64,000 nt of DNA from Verrucomicrobiota bacterium (lineage in GTDB: Bacteria > Chlamydiota > Chlamydiia > Chlamydiales > Rhabdochlamydiaceae), in the NCBI GenBank assembly GCA_018239665.1, contig JAFEGV010000001.1, forward strand, positions 24,797 through 88,796. The letters are read 5' to 3'. The stretch's first letter is position 1, and each line of letters begins with the position of its first letter. The position numbers and the translations under genes are program-made. The notes beneath the pieces were generated by a model. It saw only the letters and a list, made by a program, of their open reading frames with translations, was not told the DNA's origin and ran no database searches. Below, in pieces: positions 3,157 through 50,504 of this stretch.

Positions 3157-4599
3157 ATGCGGATCTTACTTACTGGCGCCAACGGCTACATCGGGGCTAG
3201 GCTTTTGCCCCTTCTTCTTGAAGAGGGGCATCACGTCATTGCCCTGTTGCGCCATCCGAAACGCTTTGACATCTCTTCTCTTAGGGAAAAGCAGGTCACG
3301 ACGATCTTCGCGGACCTGCTGGACAAAGGCTCTTTAGAAAAGCTGCCTAAACAAATCGATGCAGCCTACTATCTCGTCCATTCGATGAGCGATTCCGCTA
3401 AAGACTTTTCCGAATTGGAAGAAGAGTCTGCAAAAAACTTCATCGAAGCTCTTGAAAAAACTGAAGCGAAGCAGATCGTCTATTTAAGCGGACTGAGCAG
3501 CGACGCATCCCTTTCCCCCCACCTCTCTTCCAGAAGAAAAGTGGAGCAGATTTTATCGCATGGCAGCATCCCCTGCACGACCCTTCGGTCCGGAGTGATC
3601 ATCGGGTCTGGAAGCGCCTCCTTTGAAATCATCAGGGACCTTGTGGAGAAGCTGCCTTTGATGATTGCCCCTCGCTGGGTGCGCAACAGGACGCAGCCAA
3701 TTGCCGTATCCGACGTGCTGTTCTATTTAAAAGCTGTTCTGAACAATCCCGATACTTTCAGAAAGGCATTTGAGATCGGAGGCCCGGATGTTTTGACATA
3801 TCGGGAAATGCTCCTGCGCTATGCTTCGATCCGTGGGCTGCGCCGTTATGTGATCAACGTTCCCGTTTTAACTCCCAAGCTCTCCTCTTATTGGCTTTAT
3901 TTCGTGACATCGACCAATTTTTCCCTTGCAAGCTCTCTTGTCGACAGCCTGCGCAATGAGACGATCTGTTCCGATTTTCAGATCCAAAAACTGATACCCC
4001 ATCAATGTTTAAAATATGAGGAAGCGATCTCGCGGGCCTTGGAAAAAATAGAACAAAACGCCGTTGTTTCCAGTTGGCGCGACGCCATAGTCTTAAGCCG
4101 TCTGCAGCCTAATTTCCAGGAGCACATACGGATCCCCGCTACAGGATGCTTGTCCAACAAGCAAAGGATTGAGATCCATGGCAATCCTCAAGCTTCCATC
4201 GATGCGCTATGGGCAATCGGCGGAGAGACCGGATGGTATTACGCGAACTGGGCCTGGAAAATCCGCGGGTTCGTCGATAAGCTCTGCGGCGGAGCAGGAC
4301 TTAACCGGGGCAGAACGAATACAGACAAGATTGAAACCGGCGACGCCATCGATTTTTGGCGCGTGCTGGCTGCTGATAAAACAAATGGCCGATTGCTGCT
4401 TTACGCAGAGATGAAACTCCCCGGAGAAGCTTGGCTCGAATTCAGGATCTGCCGCGATGGTCCCAAGACTTTTCTCGAGCAAACTGCGACATTCCGGCCT
4501 AAAGGGGTTCTAGGCCGGCTCTACTGGTATTCCCTTCTTCCCATCCACAATTTGATCTTCCATGGGATGGCAAGGGCCATAGTCCGCGGCAACAGTTAA
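3157..4599 (+). CDS. NAD(P)-binding SDR/NmrA-like protein with a C-terminal DUF2867-like domain
   Basis: The N-terminal Rossmann motif MRILLTGANGYIGARLL is present. The 480-aa two-domain layout resembles SDR-DUF2867 fusion proteins. Substrate is unknown. Confidence 0.6.
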   Translation: MRILLTGANGYIGARLLPLLLEEGHHVIALLRHPKRFDISSLREKQVTTIFADLLDKGSLEKLPKQIDAAYYLVHSMSDSAKDFSELEEESAKNFIEALEKTEAKQIVYLSGLSSDASLSPHLSSRRKVEQILSHGSIPCTTLRSGVIIGSGSASFEIIRDLVEKLPLMIAPRWVRNRTQPIAVSDVLFYLKAVLNNPDTFRKAFEIGGPDVLTYREMLLRYASIRGLRRYVINVPVLTPKLSSYWLYFVTSTNFSLASSLVDSLRNETICSDFQIQKLIPHQCLKYEEAISRALEKIEQNAVVSSWRDAIVLSRLQPNFQEHIRIPATGCLSNKQRIEIHGNPQASIDALWAIGGETGWYYANWAWKIRGFVDKLCGGAGLNRGRTNTDKIETGDAIDFWRVLAADKTNGRLLLYAEMKLPGEAWLEFRICRDGPKTFLEQTATFRPKGVLGRLYWYSLLPIHNLIFHGMARAIVRGNS

Positions 4600-5195
4600 A
4601 CTGTTACAAGCTGCGACTCACTAGGTTCTGCAAGTTTGAGCTGCTGGGCGTAGCAACGGTAGCAAACGGGAAAGTAGCTCTCTTCCGCTCCAAGCTGCAC
4701 CGTAGGGCCGTCCAGTGTTGGAACCCCGTCAACGTGCTTGATGTTCATGATCGACTTTCGGTTGCAGTAATGGCATGTGGCCTTTACCTCTTCGATCGAA
4801 TCGGCAAGTTCCATAAGGCGCAACGAACCTTCAAAAAGCTTCGACCTGAAATCGGTGCGGAGGCCATAGCAAATAACGGGAATATCCTTGAGAAGGGTGA
4901 CCATGCGCAGCTGTTCGATCGTGCTTGCTGAAAAGAACTGGGCCTCGTCGACCAATATACAGCTGACCCCTTCCAAGTTCAGGTCGAGAATATTGGTTTC
5001 AGGGGTGACCAGGACATCCGCCGCCATCTCCAATCCTGCCCGAGACTTGATCTGTTCCCTGCCAAACCGGGTGTCCATTTCAGGTTTGAGCAATACGATC
5101 TTTTTGCCCTGCTGGCGGTAATTGTGCGCGACAGCTAGAAGGTTTAACGTTTTTGCACTGCCTACGGTGCCATGTCGAAAATAGAGTTTTGCCAT
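4596..5195 (-). CDS. tdk: thymidine kinase
   Basis: MAKLYFRHGTVGSAKTLNLL...VLVDEAQFF...ICYGLRTDFRSKLFEGS...CHYCNRK...CYRCY is colinear with E. coli-type Tdk, including the P-loop and the C-terminal zinc Cys pairs. Confidence 0.9.
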   Translation of the reverse strand: MAKLYFRHGTVGSAKTLNLLAVAHNYRQQGKKIVLLKPEMDTRFGREQIKSRAGLEMAADVLVTPETNILDLNLEGVSCILVDEAQFFSASTIEQLRMVTLLKDIPVICYGLRTDFRSKLFEGSLRLMELADSIEEVKATCHYCNRKSIMNIKHVDGVPTLDGPTVQLGAEESYFPVCYRCYAQQLKLAEPSESQLVTV

Positions 5196-5217
5196 TGGTC
5201 GGTCCCCCTTGATTTAT

Positions 5218-5376
5218 GAGGGAATTGCAAAACTCATTTGCCCGTTAAAATCGCTCTTTTGAGGCTGTTTGCGCCCGTTCTCCTTCCCCGACCCACTAGG
5301 GGTCGGCCTCGTCGAACGGGCGCAAACAGCCTCAAAATCATCAATTTTTTCTGGCAAAGCAGTTTTGCAATTCCCT
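5218..5376. repeat. Family-1 palindromic intergenic element (type copy)
   Basis: The termini are perfect 17-bp inverted repeats: gagggaattgcaaaact (5218-5234) and agttttgcaattccctc (5360-5376). A nested perfect 24-bp inverted repeat lies at 5257-5280 / 5314-5337, with a central hairpin ccgaccc/gggtcgg. Confidence 0.85.
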
Positions 5377-5477
5377 CTTATGCAAAATATAGCGTTGGGA
5401 TCCCAAACGCACAAGCAATTTCAGGAAAAAAATTTCTTGCTTTCATTTTTTTGGGCTTTTGAGCATAACAAAACACC

Positions 5478-5669
5478 TTAGCTCGACTTTGCACCTTTTT
5501 GGGTTCGAAGGCCTCGAGGTATTTGTTCTCGGGGAAGTTATTTATAACGGGAAAGGGTCCTTTAACCCTGTCCCGTTATAAATAATCTCCAAGTTCGACC
5601 TGCGGTCGAACGTCCGAGGGCAAATAGACGAGGCAGGCGAGCCCAAAAAGGCGCAAAGTCGAGCTTAGC
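5478..5669. repeat. Family-2 palindromic intergenic element, copy 1
   Basis: The arms ttagctcgactttgcacctttttgggttcg (5478-) and cgagcccaaaaaggcgcaaagtcgagcttagc (-5669) are near-perfect inverted repeats. Internal hairpins are gttatttataacggg...cccgttataaataa and gttcgacctgcggtcgaac. The architecture is the same as 63705-63894. Confidence 0.8.
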
Positions 5670-5697
5670 TGAAACCAATCCAAGGTAGAGGTAACCT

Positions 5698-6351
5698 ATG
5701 CTGATGACTGATATCCATGTCCGTACTTTCGTGGGCCCGGCTTTAAGGACCTATTTGCACAGCATTGCAAAACTGCGGATGGATGTCTTTCGGGAATACC
5801 CTTTTTTGGAAGAACCGGACCTGACTTTGGAAACCGCGAGATTGAAGCGTTACCTGACCAGCAAGGAATCGATCGGCGTGCTAGTCTTCGACAATACGAC
5901 GCTCGTCGGCGTTTCCCTTGGCATCCCCTTAACTCTAGAGCGGGACGAGATCCAAAGGCCGTTTCTTGATCGGTTCCATGATATCTCGACCTACTTCTAC
6001 TTCGGGGAGTCGGTCCTGCTCAAGCAATACCGGAACAGGGGCATCGGCCATCACTTCTTTGATGCGCGCGAAGCCCATGTCAAGCATCTGATCCAGTACA
6101 AGCACATCTGCTTTTTTGATCCGGTCCGTCCTGAAGATGACCTGCATAAGCCTGCCGACTACTTGTCTCCGCATGACTTTTGGCGCAAGCGGGGCTATGT
6201 CCACTGCCCCGATCTGCATTGTAAATTGGTATGGAAAGAACTAGAAGAAAAGCAACCTTCTGAAAAGTCTTTGACCTTCTGGATCAAAGACCTTCACGAC
6301 GATTACGCGCCTTTTGAGAGATCAAATGAATCCAAGAAAGGATTGTCTTGA
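5698..6351 (+). CDS. GNAT-family N-acetyltransferase (putative)
   Basis: Carries an acetyl-CoA-binding-like motif, LLKQYRNRGIGHHFF (Q/RxxGxG/A), in a 217-aa protein. Substrate is unknown. Confidence 0.5.
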   Translation: MLMTDIHVRTFVGPALRTYLHSIAKLRMDVFREYPFLEEPDLTLETARLKRYLTSKESIGVLVFDNTTLVGVSLGIPLTLERDEIQRPFLDRFHDISTYFYFGESVLLKQYRNRGIGHHFFDAREAHVKHLIQYKHICFFDPVRPEDDLHKPADYLSPHDFWRKRGYVHCPDLHCKLVWKELEEKQPSEKSLTFWIKDLHDDYAPFERSNESKKGLS

Positions 6352-7226
6352 AGCTCTTGTTCTAAAGAAGGCGGATAGGTGACTGTCAGCTTATAGAGGG
6401 TAGTTCCAACTAGAATAAGCCGTCCTTTGACCTGCTGATCGCCTTGCTGAAGGCGGAAGTCGAGAGAGCGATGCGCTTGATGCGTTGAGAACTTCTTATC
6501 GACGATCGTTGTTCCTGGCATGTACTTGACCATGATGTCCAAAGCGCCTTTAAGCAAGGTAGTTGATCCTGCCATCTTCCATTTCCGCGGAAGGTCCATA
6601 TAAGTCACTGAATAGTACACTTGTTTGTTCTGATGGGTTTTTAGCTCTTGGTAGTTAAGGACTTTGTTCGCTTCGGGGATCGGGAGCACTTTTGTCTCTT
6701 CTTGGGGATCGTTCGGGAAATGGACTTTGAAACCCGCATCGTCATAGGCATATTGGATCCAGCCTTCCTTCGACGAGAGTCCTTTTTCCAAGCCGATCGA
6801 CCACTTCGTCAAAGCGTTTCCAAAAATACTGGCTATTGCACAGCCGGCAATGATGATTAGAGCTGTAATCCGCCGCTTGAAGGAGAGGGCCATTTGACGG
6901 ATCAAAGTGTTGTTTGAACCGAAAAAAGATGCAGCCTTGAAGCTTTCCCAATAGCTGAGCTTGCGTCCTGTCCGATCAAAGATCTTGATGCCAAATAGAG
7001 CTTTTCCTGGAGTGGTCCCGGTCAGCGAGACTAACAAGGCCTCAATGGGGATCCAAAGGAAAGGAACTGCGAGAGCAAAAGCAAAGTAGTAAAGGGTATC
7101 AATGAACCAGGGAAAGAACATCGAGATGGTTCCGCCGACGAGGAAGAGGGATAGGTAGTCGACAAACCGAGCCAGAGCTCGAAACGATTTTGAAGGATTT
7201 TTTGAATTAAACAACCAAAAATGCAT
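6303..7226 (-). CDS. RDD-family membrane protein with a C-terminal extracytoplasmic domain
   Basis: RDD signature pieces FRALARFVDYLSLFLV and TPGKALFGIKIFDRTGRKL are present, with about 4 hydrophobic segments followed by a soluble domain of about 170 aa. Confidence 0.55.
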   Translation of the reverse strand: MHFWLFNSKNPSKSFRALARFVDYLSLFLVGGTISMFFPWFIDTLYYFAFALAVPFLWIPIEALLVSLTGTTPGKALFGIKIFDRTGRKLSYWESFKAASFFGSNNTLIRQMALSFKRRITALIIIAGCAIASIFGNALTKWSIGLEKGLSSKEGWIQYAYDDAGFKVHFPNDPQEETKVLPIPEANKVLNYQELKTHQNKQVYYSVTYMDLPRKWKMAGSTTLLKGALDIMVKYMPGTTIVDKKFSTHQAHRSLDFRLQQGDQQVKGRLILVGTTLYKLTVTYPPSLEQELQDNPFLDSFDLSKGA

Positions 7227-7416
7227 AAAACTCTCACCTTTTAATTAACATTGATAACAATTATACACCAATTGAACTAACAGATCAATTAAACTGATGT
7301 TTTAATTTAAAATTAAAAATCGCGATTAAAATGAAAGTAAAAAAGGCTTACCGAGTTAGAGTTCCAGGAGCCTTAGAAAGTATCTGAAAAAGGGAGGAAG
7401 AAATTATTTATTATAC

Positions 7417-7449
7417 GAGGAAATTGCAAAGCAGTTTTGCAATTCCCTC
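7417..7449 (-). terminator. Hairpin built from two inverted family-1 core motifs, 10 nt downstream of the stop of the 7459-8769 ORF (possible terminator)
   Basis: gaggaaattgcaaa-gc-agttttgcaattccctc gives a stem of about 14 bp with one mismatch. The downstream tract on the minus strand is only moderately T-rich. Confidence 0.4.
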
Positions 7450-7458
7450 TTGCAGATG

Positions 7459-28002: not shown

Positions 28003-28046
28003 GTATTGACTTGTCAGAATAAAGAGAGAATTGCAAAACTCCCTCT

Positions 28047-28080
28047 AAAAAAATACCCATGCCGTCAAAGCGGCATGGGT
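28047..28080 (-). terminator. Rho-independent terminator or attenuator between rplT and pheS
   Basis: On the minus strand a perfect 10-bp stem ACCCATGCCG/CGGCATGGGT with a 6-nt loop is followed by TATTTTTTT. It sits next to a solo family-1 core (28026-28042). Confidence 0.7.
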
Positions 28081-46239: not shown

Positions 46240-48414
46240 ATGCAGCGGAGCGTCATGAGAAGGCAATTGATCAAGATATGGCATATGGCCAGGACATTGA
46301 AAATCGATATCCTGACCTTTTTTCTTACTTTGATCTGCATATCTTTTCTTGCCCTTATTTCAATTACGAGATCGAAAAACTATAAGACCATTTTAAACTT
46401 CTCGAAAGAGGTGGCTGAGCAATGCTCCGTTCTGGTAAGCCAAAAATTTCGCGAGATTACAATGAGTTCGGAAAAGGTCTCCAAGGTCGCTGCCGGCTTT
46501 TTTCCCGAACTGGCCCCCTTTACTTTTCAGAATGAACCTTTGATCACGTATATGCTGAGCGTGATCAAGTATAATGGGCATTTTGCAAACATTTACATTG
46601 GACTGCCCAATGGCGGATTTATCGGTGTGATCGGAGGGCAGTTTGCCGATAAAAGAACCTATCTGACCGATCCGACAAAACCTTGGCCCGAAGAGGCAAA
46701 GTTCGTGCTCCAATTTGTCGATAGGGTTGCCAATCCTCCGACTGATACCTGGTACTATCTCACGGAGGACTTTAAACAGATCGATCAAGAAGTGCTCTAT
46801 AATTCGACCTATGATTCTCGAACGCGCCCCTGGTTTATCGGGGCGGTAAAGACACACTCGCTTTATTGGACTGAATTTTATCCTTTTCAGCCACAGATCG
46901 GAATAGGTATCTCGGTCGGGAATCCGATCTATGGCCAGCAAACTTCAACAGTTGGAAATTCCGACCCACTCCTCGCTAAGCCGGACATGAACCAATCTAT
47001 ATCCCCTAGGGAGGATCTGCTCGGGGTCATTGGCATCGACTTGACGATGGTGTTTTTAGACGATTTTATCAAAAGCCAAGATGTCAGCGAGCACGGCAAG
47101 GTGTTCATCACTAATGATGTCGGAAAGATCATTGTTCCAACTCGCGCGGAAGATATGGCAAGTTCGCCAATCGACTCGGCCCTCGTCTCCATGTTGTTCC
47201 AACAGTACTCCAACGACCCTCTCAAACCTGACAATGTAGCCCGCTACCAGGGAGTCGAATACTTAAGCTACACATCTAAACTTCCCGGAGTTTTTGGAAG
47301 GAACTGGTACATTATGACGATTGCTCCTTCAGACGATTTCTTTGCAGGGATGATCAAGGTGCAGCATAGGGTTTTATTATTTATTTTTGGTATTTTGTTC
47401 CTGGCCGCCCTTGTGGTGATCTATTTTGCCAAAAAAGTTTCCTTCCCGATCAAGAGGCTTGCAAGCGAGGTAGATAAGATCCGCAAGCTAGAACTGCTAA
47501 GCGAAGCTAGAATTCCTTCCAACATCAATGAAATCCAACAGATCGATAAGGCGATTGCATCGATGCGGCGCGTCATACGATCTTTTTGCAGGTATCTTCC
47601 CAAAGAAATCGTCAAAGACCTTATCGATAATCATGAAGAAATTACCCTCGGGGGCAAAAAGAAAGAGATCACGATATTTGTTTCCGACATTACTAATTTC
47701 ACTTCGATTGCCGAAGCCCTGCCAATGGATCAACTTACGGCTCTTTTAGGCGAATATTTTGACGTCATGTCGAAAATCATTCTTAAATCGCATGGAACGA
47801 TCGATAAATTTATCGGTGACGGGATCATGGCGTTTTGGGGCGCGCCGATCGAATTTGAGGACCATGCGCAAAGAGCTTGCATAGCGGCCCTCCAATGCCT
47901 TGCCATTATTACCGCTTTAAATGAAAAGAGGCGCGCATCCGGGGCGCCGGAGTTCTATACCCGTTTCGGAATCAATACGGGGACTGTGATCGTCGGCAAT
48001 ATCGGAACAGAGGAGCGGATGAATTACACGGCCATCGGCAATGCTGTCAATACAACGCATCGTCTGCAAGAAGAGGGCAAGCGCTATCACACTTCGATTA
48101 TTATTAGCGAAAAGGTCTATCAAAATCTTGGCAGCAATTTTGTTGTTCGTCCACTGGATGCCGTCGTAGTAAAAGAAAAAAAGGAAAAGAGCCTCATCTA
48201 CGAACTTGCAGGCGTTGAAGAAGGAGAGAAGGAAATACAAGCGGACTTGGAAAAAAGGGAGCTGTGCCGAGCGTTTACAGCCGCCTTTGAAGCTGTGCAG
48301 GCGGACGACTTGGAAAGAGCCTATGCCATCTTTTCTGAAATTGCAGCAAAGCATCCTGACGATTATCCCACCCAGATCCATTTAAAGCGAATTGAAGAAA
48401 GGCGGGGAAGATGA
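46240..48414 (+). CDS. membrane-bound class III adenylate/guanylate cyclase (TM - Cache-like sensor - TM - HAMP - cyclase - helical C-terminal tail)
   Basis: The Cache-like box is TRPWFIGAV...WTEFYPF, and the HAMP-like box is FPIKRLASEVDKIRKL. The cyclase core reads ITIFVSDITNFTSIAE...HGTIDKFIGDGIMAFWGAP...GINTGTVIVGNIG...YTAIGNAVNTTHRLQE. The start is ambiguous among several Met codons (46240-46285). Confidence 0.85.
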   Translation: MQRSVMRRQLIKIWHMARTLKIDILTFFLTLICISFLALISITRSKNYKTILNFSKEVAEQCSVLVSQKFREITMSSEKVSKVAAGFFPELAPFTFQNEPLITYMLSVIKYNGHFANIYIGLPNGGFIGVIGGQFADKRTYLTDPTKPWPEEAKFVLQFVDRVANPPTDTWYYLTEDFKQIDQEVLYNSTYDSRTRPWFIGAVKTHSLYWTEFYPFQPQIGIGISVGNPIYGQQTSTVGNSDPLLAKPDMNQSISPREDLLGVIGIDLTMVFLDDFIKSQDVSEHGKVFITNDVGKIIVPTRAEDMASSPIDSALVSMLFQQYSNDPLKPDNVARYQGVEYLSYTSKLPGVFGRNWYIMTIAPSDDFFAGMIKVQHRVLLFIFGILFLAALVVIYFAKKVSFPIKRLASEVDKIRKLELLSEARIPSNINEIQQIDKAIASMRRVIRSFCRYLPKEIVKDLIDNHEEITLGGKKKEITIFVSDITNFTSIAEALPMDQLTALLGEYFDVMSKIILKSHGTIDKFIGDGIMAFWGAPIEFEDHAQRACIAALQCLAIITALNEKRRASGAPEFYTRFGINTGTVIVGNIGTEERMNYTAIGNAVNTTHRLQEEGKRYHTSIIISEKVYQNLGSNFVVRPLDAVVVKEKKEKSLIYELAGVEEGEKEIQADLEKRELCRAFTAAFEAVQADDLERAYAIFSEIAAKHPDDYPTQIHLKRIEERRGR

Positions 48415-50504
48415 AAAACCGATCATCATTGTTATTTCGCAGGTCATGGTCGTTCAAGGTCTATATACTGACCCTCTTTCTTCTGTTGATTTTGATCTCA
48501 TTTTGTTCTGTGGGCGCGTTTGCCTTTTCGAAGCAATACGCCTCGGCCCTCTCTTTTTCTAAAGGGATCGCAAAACGTGCCGTAGCGGCCATCAATGAGA
48601 AATTGAATGCGATGGCCCAAAGTTCCGTACAGATCACTCAAGTAGCCGCCAATTACGTTTTAGAACTTGGAGACCTCTCCATCGAAGATCCTAAATTGAC
48701 CTTATTTATGCGCAACGTAATAAAAAACAATCAAAACTTTGCCAATTTCTACATGGGCTTCGATAATGGAAATTTCATAGGAAGCTACAATCATTCTTAT
48801 ACCGATACGAACACCTTTTTTTCCAAGCCGTCAGAGCCCTTGCCGGAAGGAACCGTTTTTTCATTGACCTACATCGATATGATTGCGAATCCCCCCATGG
48901 AAACAAGACGTTATTTGGATAAAGATTTTCATGAGCTTGCAAGAGAAGTTTTTAAGCCAGGGCCTTTTGGAGTTAAAGACCGTCCATGGTATGTAGGCGC
49001 AGTGGAAAAAGGGGGCGTTTTTTGGACAGGCATTTATCCATTTCTTTATATGAAAGAAACCGGGATCTCGGTCAGCAACCCGATGAAAGACCGAAACGGC
49101 ACGTTCAAAGGAGTTGTTGCGATCGACCTCCCTTTTGTCTTTTTGTCCCATTTTATCGAGGAGCAGATTGTTGGAAAAACGGGAAAAGCATTTCTTATTA
49201 ATGACCAAGGAAAGATCCTTGCTCCGATGACCCTGCCTGGCGATGAAAAAAAACGGGAGGAGCTAATATCGATTATAGCCGATGTGTATAAAGCCTACGT
49301 CTCTAAAGATCAGGATGAAGAGCGCTTTATTGTATCATACGATCATAAGAAGTACCTTACATACATCTCCAAGCTTCCCTTAGCTTTCCATGAAAACTGG
49401 AGGATCGTTACCGTCGCTCCCCTTAACGATTTTTTAGGAGCAACGCTCCTGATGCAAAAACAATTGTTGATCATCACTCTTGGCATTCTGTTATTAACAA
49501 GTTTTATCATTGTCAAGTATGCCGGCAGGATCTCCTCTCCAATCGCTATTTTGTCAAAGGAAGTGGATAAGATCGGTAGGTTGGACCTGAAAAGCGATCG
49601 GCAGATCAGATCGAACATCAAGGAGATATTATTAATCGAAAATGCCGTCGCCGCGCTCAGGCGCGCAGTCTATTCTTTTGCCAAATACATTCCCAAAGAG
49701 ATCGTCCTGGACCTATTCGAGAAAAAAGAAGAGATCGTTCTTGGAGGGGAAAAACGGGAATTGACGATGTTCTTCTCCAGAATATCCGAATTTTCAGACA
49801 TCGCTGAATCGCTATCGATCGATGTTCTATCACAGCTTCTTACCGAATACTTGGATAAAATGTCGAAGATCATCCTCAGCTCCAACGGCACCATTGATAA
49901 ATTCTTGGGCAATGGGATCATGGCGTTTTGGGGAGCTCCTCTCCCTGTCAGCGACCATGCTGCCAAAGCATGCACGACTGCGCTTCTTTGCAAAGTGATG
50001 ATTGCTAGATTAAATCAAAAGCACAAAGAAGCGGGAATGCCCGAATTTGTAACGCTGTTTGGAATCAATACCGGGACGGCGATCGTAGGGAATATCGGCA
50101 CGCAGGAACGGATGAACTACACCGCAATTGGAGATGCTGTGAATATTACCTCTCGTCTTGAACATATCGATAAGCTCTACCATACCTCGATCCTCATCAG
50201 CGAAAACGTCCATAAACAGCTCAATGATCAGTTCGTCATGCGCCCTCTCGACGAGATAGCGGTGAAAGGAAAGGCTCAAAAGGTTAAAATTTATGAGCTT
50301 GTCGGCAAATTTGGAGAGGATAAGGAGATCGAGCCTAAAGAGGAGCAGGTCTTGCTTTGCAACCTGTTCCGAGAAGCCTATGAGGCGGAGGAAGGCAATG
50401 ACATCAGGAAGGCCTATGATCTCTTTAAATCGATAGCGTCCAAGTTTCCCGAAGACTATCCAACCCAGCTTCACTTAAAGCGAATAGAAGACCGGCTCTC
50501 CTAA
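48411..50504 (+). CDS. membrane-bound class III adenylate/guanylate cyclase, tandem paralog
   Basis: Same architecture as the upstream gene (DRPWYVGAV...WTGIYPF; SPIAILSKEVDKIGRL; LTMFFSRISEFSDIAE...GTIDKFLGNGIMAFWGAP...GINTGTAIVGNIG). The start overlaps the upstream stop as ATGA. Confidence 0.85.
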   Translation: MKNRSSLLFRRSWSFKVYILTLFLLLILISFCSVGAFAFSKQYASALSFSKGIAKRAVAAINEKLNAMAQSSVQITQVAANYVLELGDLSIEDPKLTLFMRNVIKNNQNFANFYMGFDNGNFIGSYNHSYTDTNTFFSKPSEPLPEGTVFSLTYIDMIANPPMETRRYLDKDFHELAREVFKPGPFGVKDRPWYVGAVEKGGVFWTGIYPFLYMKETGISVSNPMKDRNGTFKGVVAIDLPFVFLSHFIEEQIVGKTGKAFLINDQGKILAPMTLPGDEKKREELISIIADVYKAYVSKDQDEERFIVSYDHKKYLTYISKLPLAFHENWRIVTVAPLNDFLGATLLMQKQLLIITLGILLLTSFIIVKYAGRISSPIAILSKEVDKIGRLDLKSDRQIRSNIKEILLIENAVAALRRAVYSFAKYIPKEIVLDLFEKKEEIVLGGEKRELTMFFSRISEFSDIAESLSIDVLSQLLTEYLDKMSKIILSSNGTIDKFLGNGIMAFWGAPLPVSDHAAKACTTALLCKVMIARLNQKHKEAGMPEFVTLFGINTGTAIVGNIGTQERMNYTAIGDAVNITSRLEHIDKLYHTSILISENVHKQLNDQFVMRPLDEIAVKGKAQKVKIYELVGKFGEDKEIEPKEEQVLLCNLFREAYEAEEGNDIRKAYDLFKSIASKFPEDYPTQLHLKRIEDRLS

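Follow-up and report, generated by a model that had tools for sequence, protein, structure and literature searches.

What is the 17-nucleotide core GAGGGAATTGCAAAACT that recurs in the intergenic DNA of this locus, and how did it reach its present positions? The window (the entire 64-kb stretch of DNA analyzed here) contains three exact copies of the core, at 5218-5234 (+), 5361-5377 (-), and 7433-7449 (-). Near copies are located at 28024 (+) and 63893 (-), with one mismatch, at 18936 (+), with two mismatches, and at 7417 (+), 18858 (-), 61622 (+), and 61787 (-), with three mismatches. The 10 matches (three exact and seven with one to three mismatches) compare with an expectation of 0.32 for the 64 kb, based on dinucleotide-preserving shuffles (n = 100), none of which reached 10. 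Not one of the 10 cores is positioned inside an open reading frame (ORF) of 200 or more residues, though such ORFs cover 82% of the window. An initial annotation had described the core as a dispersed motif limited to intergenic DNA, and both parts of this description are borne out. The motif is far above chance frequency in the window, it is absent from the coding sequence there rather than present at similar density, and it is not confined to this region, as cores are found in other genomes as well. The window copies are found in divergent (5218, 18.8 kb, and 63.9 kb), tandem (7417 and 28024), and convergent (61622) spacers, with no positional preference seen among the three types.

Table 1. 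Coordinates of the elements built on the 17-nt core in the window.
Feature	Positions	Strand	Basis or remark
Type copy, subfamily A1, full length, 160 bp	5218-5377	+	Perfect 17-bp terminal inverted repeats
Target-site duplication TTAT of the type copy, left	5214-5217		Sequence
Target-site duplication TTAT of the type copy, right	5378-5381		Sequence
Two-core hairpin, 33 bp, GGCAAAGCAGTTTTGCAATTCCCTC	7417-7449		Core count and sequence
Degenerate element, about 102 bp	18773-18874		Right core 18858-18874, 3 mismatches
Degenerate short element, about 50 bp	18936-18985		Left core 18936-18952, 2 mismatches
Micro-element, 22 bp, GAGAGAATTGCAAAACTCCCTC	28024-28045		Left end and right-end tip
A1 element, 182 bp, decayed ends (3 mismatches each)	61622-61803	+	Between convergent genes
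Right-end core of a broken element, 1 mismatch	63893-63909	-	Core count

In the type copy, the left and right subterminal arms differ from each other, and there is a perfect 24-bp inner stem (5257-5280 pairs with 5314-5337) as well as a central hairpin. As single-stranded DNA, the element would form one long stem (-63.6 kcal/mol, z = -13.9). The initial annotation had recognized this architecture, including the perfect 17-bp termini and the single long stem, and its coordinates are correct within two bases; the end that it placed at 5376 is at 5377. The element sits upstream of the thymidine kinase gene (4596-5195, minus strand), 22 bp from its start codon. It is probably a fairly recent insertion, as its ends and its target-site duplication are perfect.

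The hairpin at 7417-7449 is located 10 nt past the stop codon of an ORF on the minus strand (7459-8769). Its sequence suggests an A1 element that has lost everything between the GCAAA of the left end and the GCAAA of the right arm. A target-site duplication was looked for in its flanks, and none is recognizable. The region at 18775-18985, previously described as a degenerate cluster, indeed consists of decayed elements. In the first of them the left core reads GGGCCGGTTGCAAAACT by eye, with five mismatches, and in the second the right end (around 18968-18985, CGTTGCAGTTCCCTTC) is badly decayed. This cluster and the element at 61622 are old, decayed copies. The latter had been considered a full element, and it does extend over 182 bp, yet its ends are degenerate, and no perfect target-site duplication is present at its flanks. 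Its termini overlap the stop codons of both convergent genes, TAG (61620-61622) of a 113-aa ORF and TGA (61802-61804, minus strand) of the pyruvate kinase gene, and both genes may owe their ends, or the present form of them, to the insertion.

Two of the cores had been regarded as solo copies. The one next to rplT, assigned to 28026-28042, is present at 28024-28040 and is part of a two-ended element, in which the left end is fused to the final five bases of the right end. This element is located in the T-tract of the rplT terminator and is flanked by the duplication TAAA (28020-28023 and 28046-28049). The core at 63893-63909 is also present, and it is probably the right end of a disrupted A1 element. 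The segment 63670-63701 (GATAAAATCACCTTTTGGCCAGG) is similar to the A1 left arm, and the repeat at 63702-63894, which adjoins the core, belongs to a second family of palindromic repeats. Judged by eye from the sequence, 63670-63909 is probably a single A1 element split by this second repeat.

Several other repeats are found in the window. The second palindromic family is about 195 bp in length and has ends like CTTAGCTCGACTTTGCAC. Its other copy (5474-5671), about 100 bp from the type copy, is 71% alike to 63702-63894, and the two match positions 1-178 of L060, one of the loci fetched from other genomes, at 79% and 71%, respectively. The region 2068-2383 includes a 243-bp element whose inverted ends (2140-2165 and 2357-2382, TATACCCAAATAACATCAAAAGTTGG) match perfectly over 26 bp. 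The interior of this element and the adjacent segment 2068-2133 have 78-91% matches in the same MAGs that carry the core (L104, L041, L080, L043, L099, L108, L086, and others), and the region is another mobile repeat common to the window and these MAGs. A 159-bp element at 13200-13358 has perfect 23-bp inverted ends (AACCCAACTTGTTCTCTACATTG), and no relatives of it were found among the fetched loci. Repetition is also seen in some of the genes. The adjacent WD40 beta-propeller genes at 21629-22906 and 22953-24239 (425 and 428 aa) are built of 120-nt repeats that are 65-86% alike, and a gene similar to them, with about 50% identity, is present in OY970364.1 (L050). The genes at 46240-48414 and 48411-50504 are tandem paralogs encoding adenylate/guanylate cyclases with a dCache sensor, and their stop and start codons overlap.

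A scan for the exact core, with one genome per species, finds at least 113 stretches. Roughly three quarters of those listed have features of the family, either a partner core nearby or membership in a subfamily cluster. These come from MAGs deposited as Chlamydiae, Chlamydiales, Parachlamydiaceae, Waddliaceae, Rhabdochlamydiaceae, Simkania, Verrucomicrobia, and Victivallales, with a few labeled Acidobacteria or 'uncultured bacterium' (all labels as deposited). The remaining listed stretches are single matches in unrelated taxa, as would arise by chance. In the 2.28-Mb chromosome OY970364.1, at least 49 exact cores are present in the 27 eight-kb blocks that were fetched; this and all other copy numbers of the family across genomes are lower bounds. 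The proteins of the window have only 22-52% identity to those of the fetched loci, and the best full-length match (50.5%) is to a MAG deposited as Waddlia chondrophila. These weak similarities, together with the repeat families that the window has in common with the MAGs, suggest that its DNA is of chlamydial or other PVC origin.

In the fetched loci, inverted cores are always located at the outer ends of the elements, in pairs. Several unrelated classes of interior sequence carry the one common 17-bp end, as is expected if only the end is recognized. Among 74 inverted core pairs from these loci and the window, 32 are flanked by perfect 4-bp direct repeats directly outside the ends. When the flanks are permuted (1000 trials), the number of such pairs averages 1.3 and never exceeds 6, and shifted offsets give 0-5. 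The duplicated target sites are AT-rich, roughly TAWW. A perfect duplication is missing in about half of the 74 pairs.

An empty site was found for one of the window elements. In the rplT-pheS spacer of a short public contig (L116), 28024-28045 is absent together with one TAAA, and the flanks are 96.6% and 91.6% identical to the window on the two sides. This empty site is that of the 22-bp derivative, not of the 160-bp type copy. A short-read contig from the window's own genome (L114, 100% identical) breaks off 28 nt into the type copy. Assemblies stop in this way at repeats, and the break indicates that this genome has several copies of the element.

Pairs of exact inverted cores are also found at the two ends of much longer elements, with lengths of 1575 bp (L085 and L105), 1573 bp (L122), and 1555 bp (L074). 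All of these contain a single ORF of 383-390 aa, with DUF772 and DDE_Tnp_1. Every base of the 17-bp end agrees between the window family and L085, L105, L074, L122, L124, and L125. The curated models that fit the transposase best are the NCBIfam models IS1182 (86.7 bits, cut-off 270) and IS5_4 (61.5 bits, cut-off 140), and it passes neither of them. Its best annotated matches are IS1182/ISUnCu17-family transposases, with 43-45% identity, and the closest of them is an 'IS1182-like element ISUnCu17 family transposase', which aligns over 97% of the length with 44.7% identity. Judging from the nearest relatives, the ends, and the duplication, the partner would be best placed near the IS1182 family, in the ISUnCu17 group. 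A transposase or its remnant was not found in the 64 kb of the window by tblastn and profile searches.

Metagenomes contain more than 7,900 relatives of the transposase, most of them on contigs 1.5-2 kb long. In 80 related loci that were taken with their flanks (L117-L196), the elements are 1.45-1.8 kb in length and have the ends GAG[GC][GC]NNTTGCAAAAY, of which the chlamydial core is one variant. Target-site duplications at these autonomous copies are mostly uninformative, probably because repeats were collapsed in these short contigs and their flanks are arbitrary. In L056 (7201-7314), from a Parachlamydiaceae MAG, a 114-bp MITE has arms (ATTTGAGCGTTCTAGAATTGAA...) that match the right ends of the autonomous relatives L119, L120, L121, L123, and L129, and for that subfamily the parent element is therefore identifiable. 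The end GAGCCTCTTGCAAAA found in this group (L199 442-456 and L117-L196) is similar to that of IS26 of the IS6 family, GGCACTGTTGCAAA. This likeness is probably a coincidence, since the transposases are of unrelated types.

The inverted ends, the duplications, the one empty site, the autonomous insertion sequence with identical ends, and the occurrence of multiple subfamilies across genomes make it very likely that the 17-nt core serves as the terminal inverted repeat of a MITE family, with ends in common with an IS1182/IS5-type (ISUnCu17-like) insertion sequence. The window elements have all of the structural features of MITEs that were tested here. They are short and non-coding (160 and 182 bp, with no similarity to a transposase in the window), and they have terminal inverted repeats (5218-5234 and 5361-5377) and a duplication of fixed length (TTAT, TAAA, and those of the 32 core pairs). 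The ends are common with autonomous elements (L085, L105, L074, and L122), and presence/absence polymorphism is observed for 28024-28045 relative to L116. Of the 'high-copy REP/MITE-like family' that had been proposed, the MITE half stands, as the elements are short and non-coding, have inverted ends and 4-bp duplications, and are numerous in relatives; the REP half does not.

The DDE transposase of the ISUnCu17-like insertion sequence would recognize the 17-bp ends and excise or copy the element. Insertion would then take place at an AT-rich 4-bp target (approximately TAWW) by a 4-bp staggered cut, and the target would become duplicated in the process. Any mobilization of the window elements would have to be in trans, because they are non-coding and the 64 kb has no transposase. 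An autonomous copy elsewhere in the genome would provide the ISUnCu17-like transposase, and the family may be active at present, or it may have been mobilized in the past.

The solo cores and mini-hairpins are two-ended remnants rather than independent motifs. A perfect 20-bp palindrome, GAGGGAATTGCAATTCCCTC, recurs in other genomes, and other short elements have lengths of 22 bp (L010), 33 bp (L037), and 55-56 bp (L104 and L026). Many of these short elements of 20-56 bp retain intact 4-bp duplications. The solo cores and the hairpins of 20-34 bp would be products of internal deletion of full elements. The deletions may arise when slippage across the hairpin joins short direct repeats, such as the palindromic TTGCAA present in both ends. 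The 20-bp form is the expected residue of a deletion between the TTGCAA copies, one in each end.

The members of subfamily A1 in the window are 5218-5377 and 61622-61803, and relatives are present in L013, L034, L032, L029, and OY970364.1. The left arm (...AAAATCGCNCTTTTG) and the right arm (...AAAATCGATGATTTTG) differ from each other, and both are conserved across genomes. A conserved difference of this kind, seen in many genomes, would be expected of a derivative with an asymmetric parent. The A1 subterminal arms match neither end of any of the autonomous elements recovered, and only the 17-bp end is common to both; A-type arms are found in none of the 80 metagenome relatives. It is conceivable, and a possibility of some weight, that the subfamily A MITEs were moved by another, unsampled insertion sequence ending in A-type arms, and that the ISUnCu17-like element is a cousin with the same 17-bp end. 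A 183-bp palindromic element at 59012-59194 also suggests that there are several pairs of ends and transposases, as it keeps A-like arms (GCTTTGCCTGGAAAAATCGGAGATTTTT and CCATTCGCCTGGCAAAATCGTTCTTTT) and has the different end AGATCTYTTGCATAAC. However, the 17-bp end of the window family is identical base for base to those of the six autonomous elements named above, and the duplication has the same length in subfamily A and in the autonomous elements. In addition, MITEs commonly share the inverted repeat alone with the element that mobilizes them. The element at 59012-59194 is 78.5% identical to L034 4313-4499, has no clear target-site duplication in its flanks, and appears to represent a sister family in which the end has changed.

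The long stem of subfamily A raises the question of selection on its structure. In the consensus stem of eight A1 copies (from the window and elsewhere, at least five genomes), 89% of the cells are paired, and 24 of the 56 stem pairs have changes on both sides. Slid alignments give 4-12 two-sided pairs, and none of 500 shuffles matches the observed number. The compensated changes are nearly all Watson-Crick, with few G-U intermediates. The scarcity of wobble intermediates is better explained by complementarity at the level of the DNA, or by matched protein-binding arms, than by selection on an RNA. The conservation of both the asymmetry and the long stem, the Watson-Crick compensation, and the occurrence in genomes of several families give some grounds for regarding subfamily A as more than passive selfish DNA, with a selected DNA hairpin or cruciform, or matched protein-binding arms, serving the host or the element. 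The recurrent 20-22-bp palindromes, whose 4-bp duplications are intact, could then be true excision footprints or independently mobile 'nano-MITEs' rather than slippage debris. We consider this reading unlikely.

It is improbable as well that the elements, or some of their copies, are kept for a role in the host, as a structured RNA, a terminator, an RNA stabilizer, or a DNA hairpin, with transposition accounting for their arrival only. The maintenance of the A1 stem above the controls is consistent with such a role, as are the positions of the hairpin at 7417-7449, shortly past a stop codon, and of the 22-bp element, in the rplT terminator tail. However, the elements match no Rfam family, and a search of the window at the gathering score returned two tRNAs only. 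A scan for promoters and terminators around 5150-7500 gave counts at background and called no element as a terminator. The copies are found in divergent, tandem, and convergent spacers alike, many of them are decayed, and the pattern of compensation fits DNA symmetry or matched protein-binding ends better than selection on RNA. Evidence of a host function was not seen for the window elements.

The initial annotation had also proposed a RAYT or an IS200/IS605 TnpA as the partner, and this is contradicted by the same features that identify the family as MITEs. REPs are tied to a Y1 transposase, and elements of this type are not known to have either target-site duplications or terminal inverted repeats. 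A REP-type element kept by a RAYT or IS200/IS605 Y1 transposase acting on single-stranded hairpins would be palindromic, intergenic, and high in copy number, as the present elements are, but it can be dismissed as extremely improbable, given the 4-bp duplications, the true terminal inverted repeats in common with a DDE-transposase insertion sequence with the identical end, the length of the full elements (160-182 bp), and the GAGG at the head of the core, where the two large REP superfamilies have GTAG or CGTC (PMC3733652). Among the 20 window ORFs scanned with Pfam, no Y1 (RAYT) transposase appeared. A cyanobacterial origin of the DNA was also considered and rejected, as HIP1 (GCGATCGC) is not enriched in the window.

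Chlamydiae have been described as repeat-poor, except for expansions of transposases in some environmental lineages, and the cited papers on chlamydial genomes mention only transposases and unspecified repeats (PMC2878342, PMC9723776, PMC13229535). Literature searches on the core sequence and on MITEs in chlamydiae found no description, and the MITE family with the 17-bp end appears to be undescribed so far. It is selfish DNA of an ordinary kind. The family fragments short-read assemblies, as seen in the public contig of the window genome that ends inside an element, and it puts hairpins beside start and stop codons. Its insertion polymorphisms could be used for strain typing. With the same end present in MAGs of several deposited lineages, the family may be a marker of mobile DNA exchanged between chlamydia-like bacteria and other PVC members. 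The family is useful for annotation, assembly, and the comparison of strains, and leaves the known mechanism of such elements unchanged.

Several known systems can be compared with the window family. REPs are palindromic, extragenic, and high in copy number, like the elements here, and have lengths of 20-40 bp, and most of them fall into two superfamilies that carry a GTAG or CGTC tag at one end (PMC3733652). ISCaa15, from the amoeba symbiont Amoebophilus asiaticus, belongs to the IS1182 family and has a length of 1434 bp, an 18/18-bp inverted repeat, a 4-bp direct repeat, and a transposase of 457 aa (PMC3196728). By description, it resembles the partner element in its inverted repeat, its 4-bp direct repeat, and its intracellular host, while the transposase of the chlamydial partner has 383-390 aa. 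A copy of ISUnCu17 in L199 (442-1924) is 1483 bp in length, with the ends GAGCCTCTTGCAAAA and GAGCTTCTTGCAAAA and the 4-bp duplication ATGA. Its right end is the same as the chlamydial core at 13 of the 17 positions, and positions 4-7 of the end differ. ISUnCu17 is an autonomous element of Proteobacteria (Aeromonas caviae IncP plasmids), unlike the MITEs of the window.

Correia/NEMIS of Neisseria and RUP of Streptococcus pneumoniae are bacterial MITEs derived from DDE insertion sequences. The present family is like them in being short (20-260 bp), non-coding, intergenic, and present in many copies, with the potential to form long hairpins. As in these MITEs, its terminal inverted repeats are the same as those of an autonomous insertion sequence, and its duplication is of fixed length. 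A MITE has been cited from a Cardinium symbiont as well (PMC13229535). The present family is unlike other bacterial MITEs in the sequence of its end, its IS1182/ISUnCu17-like partner, and its hosts, which are MAGs deposited as Chlamydiota and other PVC bacteria. Two further peculiarities set it apart from them, the several unrelated interiors carried by one end and the recurrent 20-bp palindromic deletion product.
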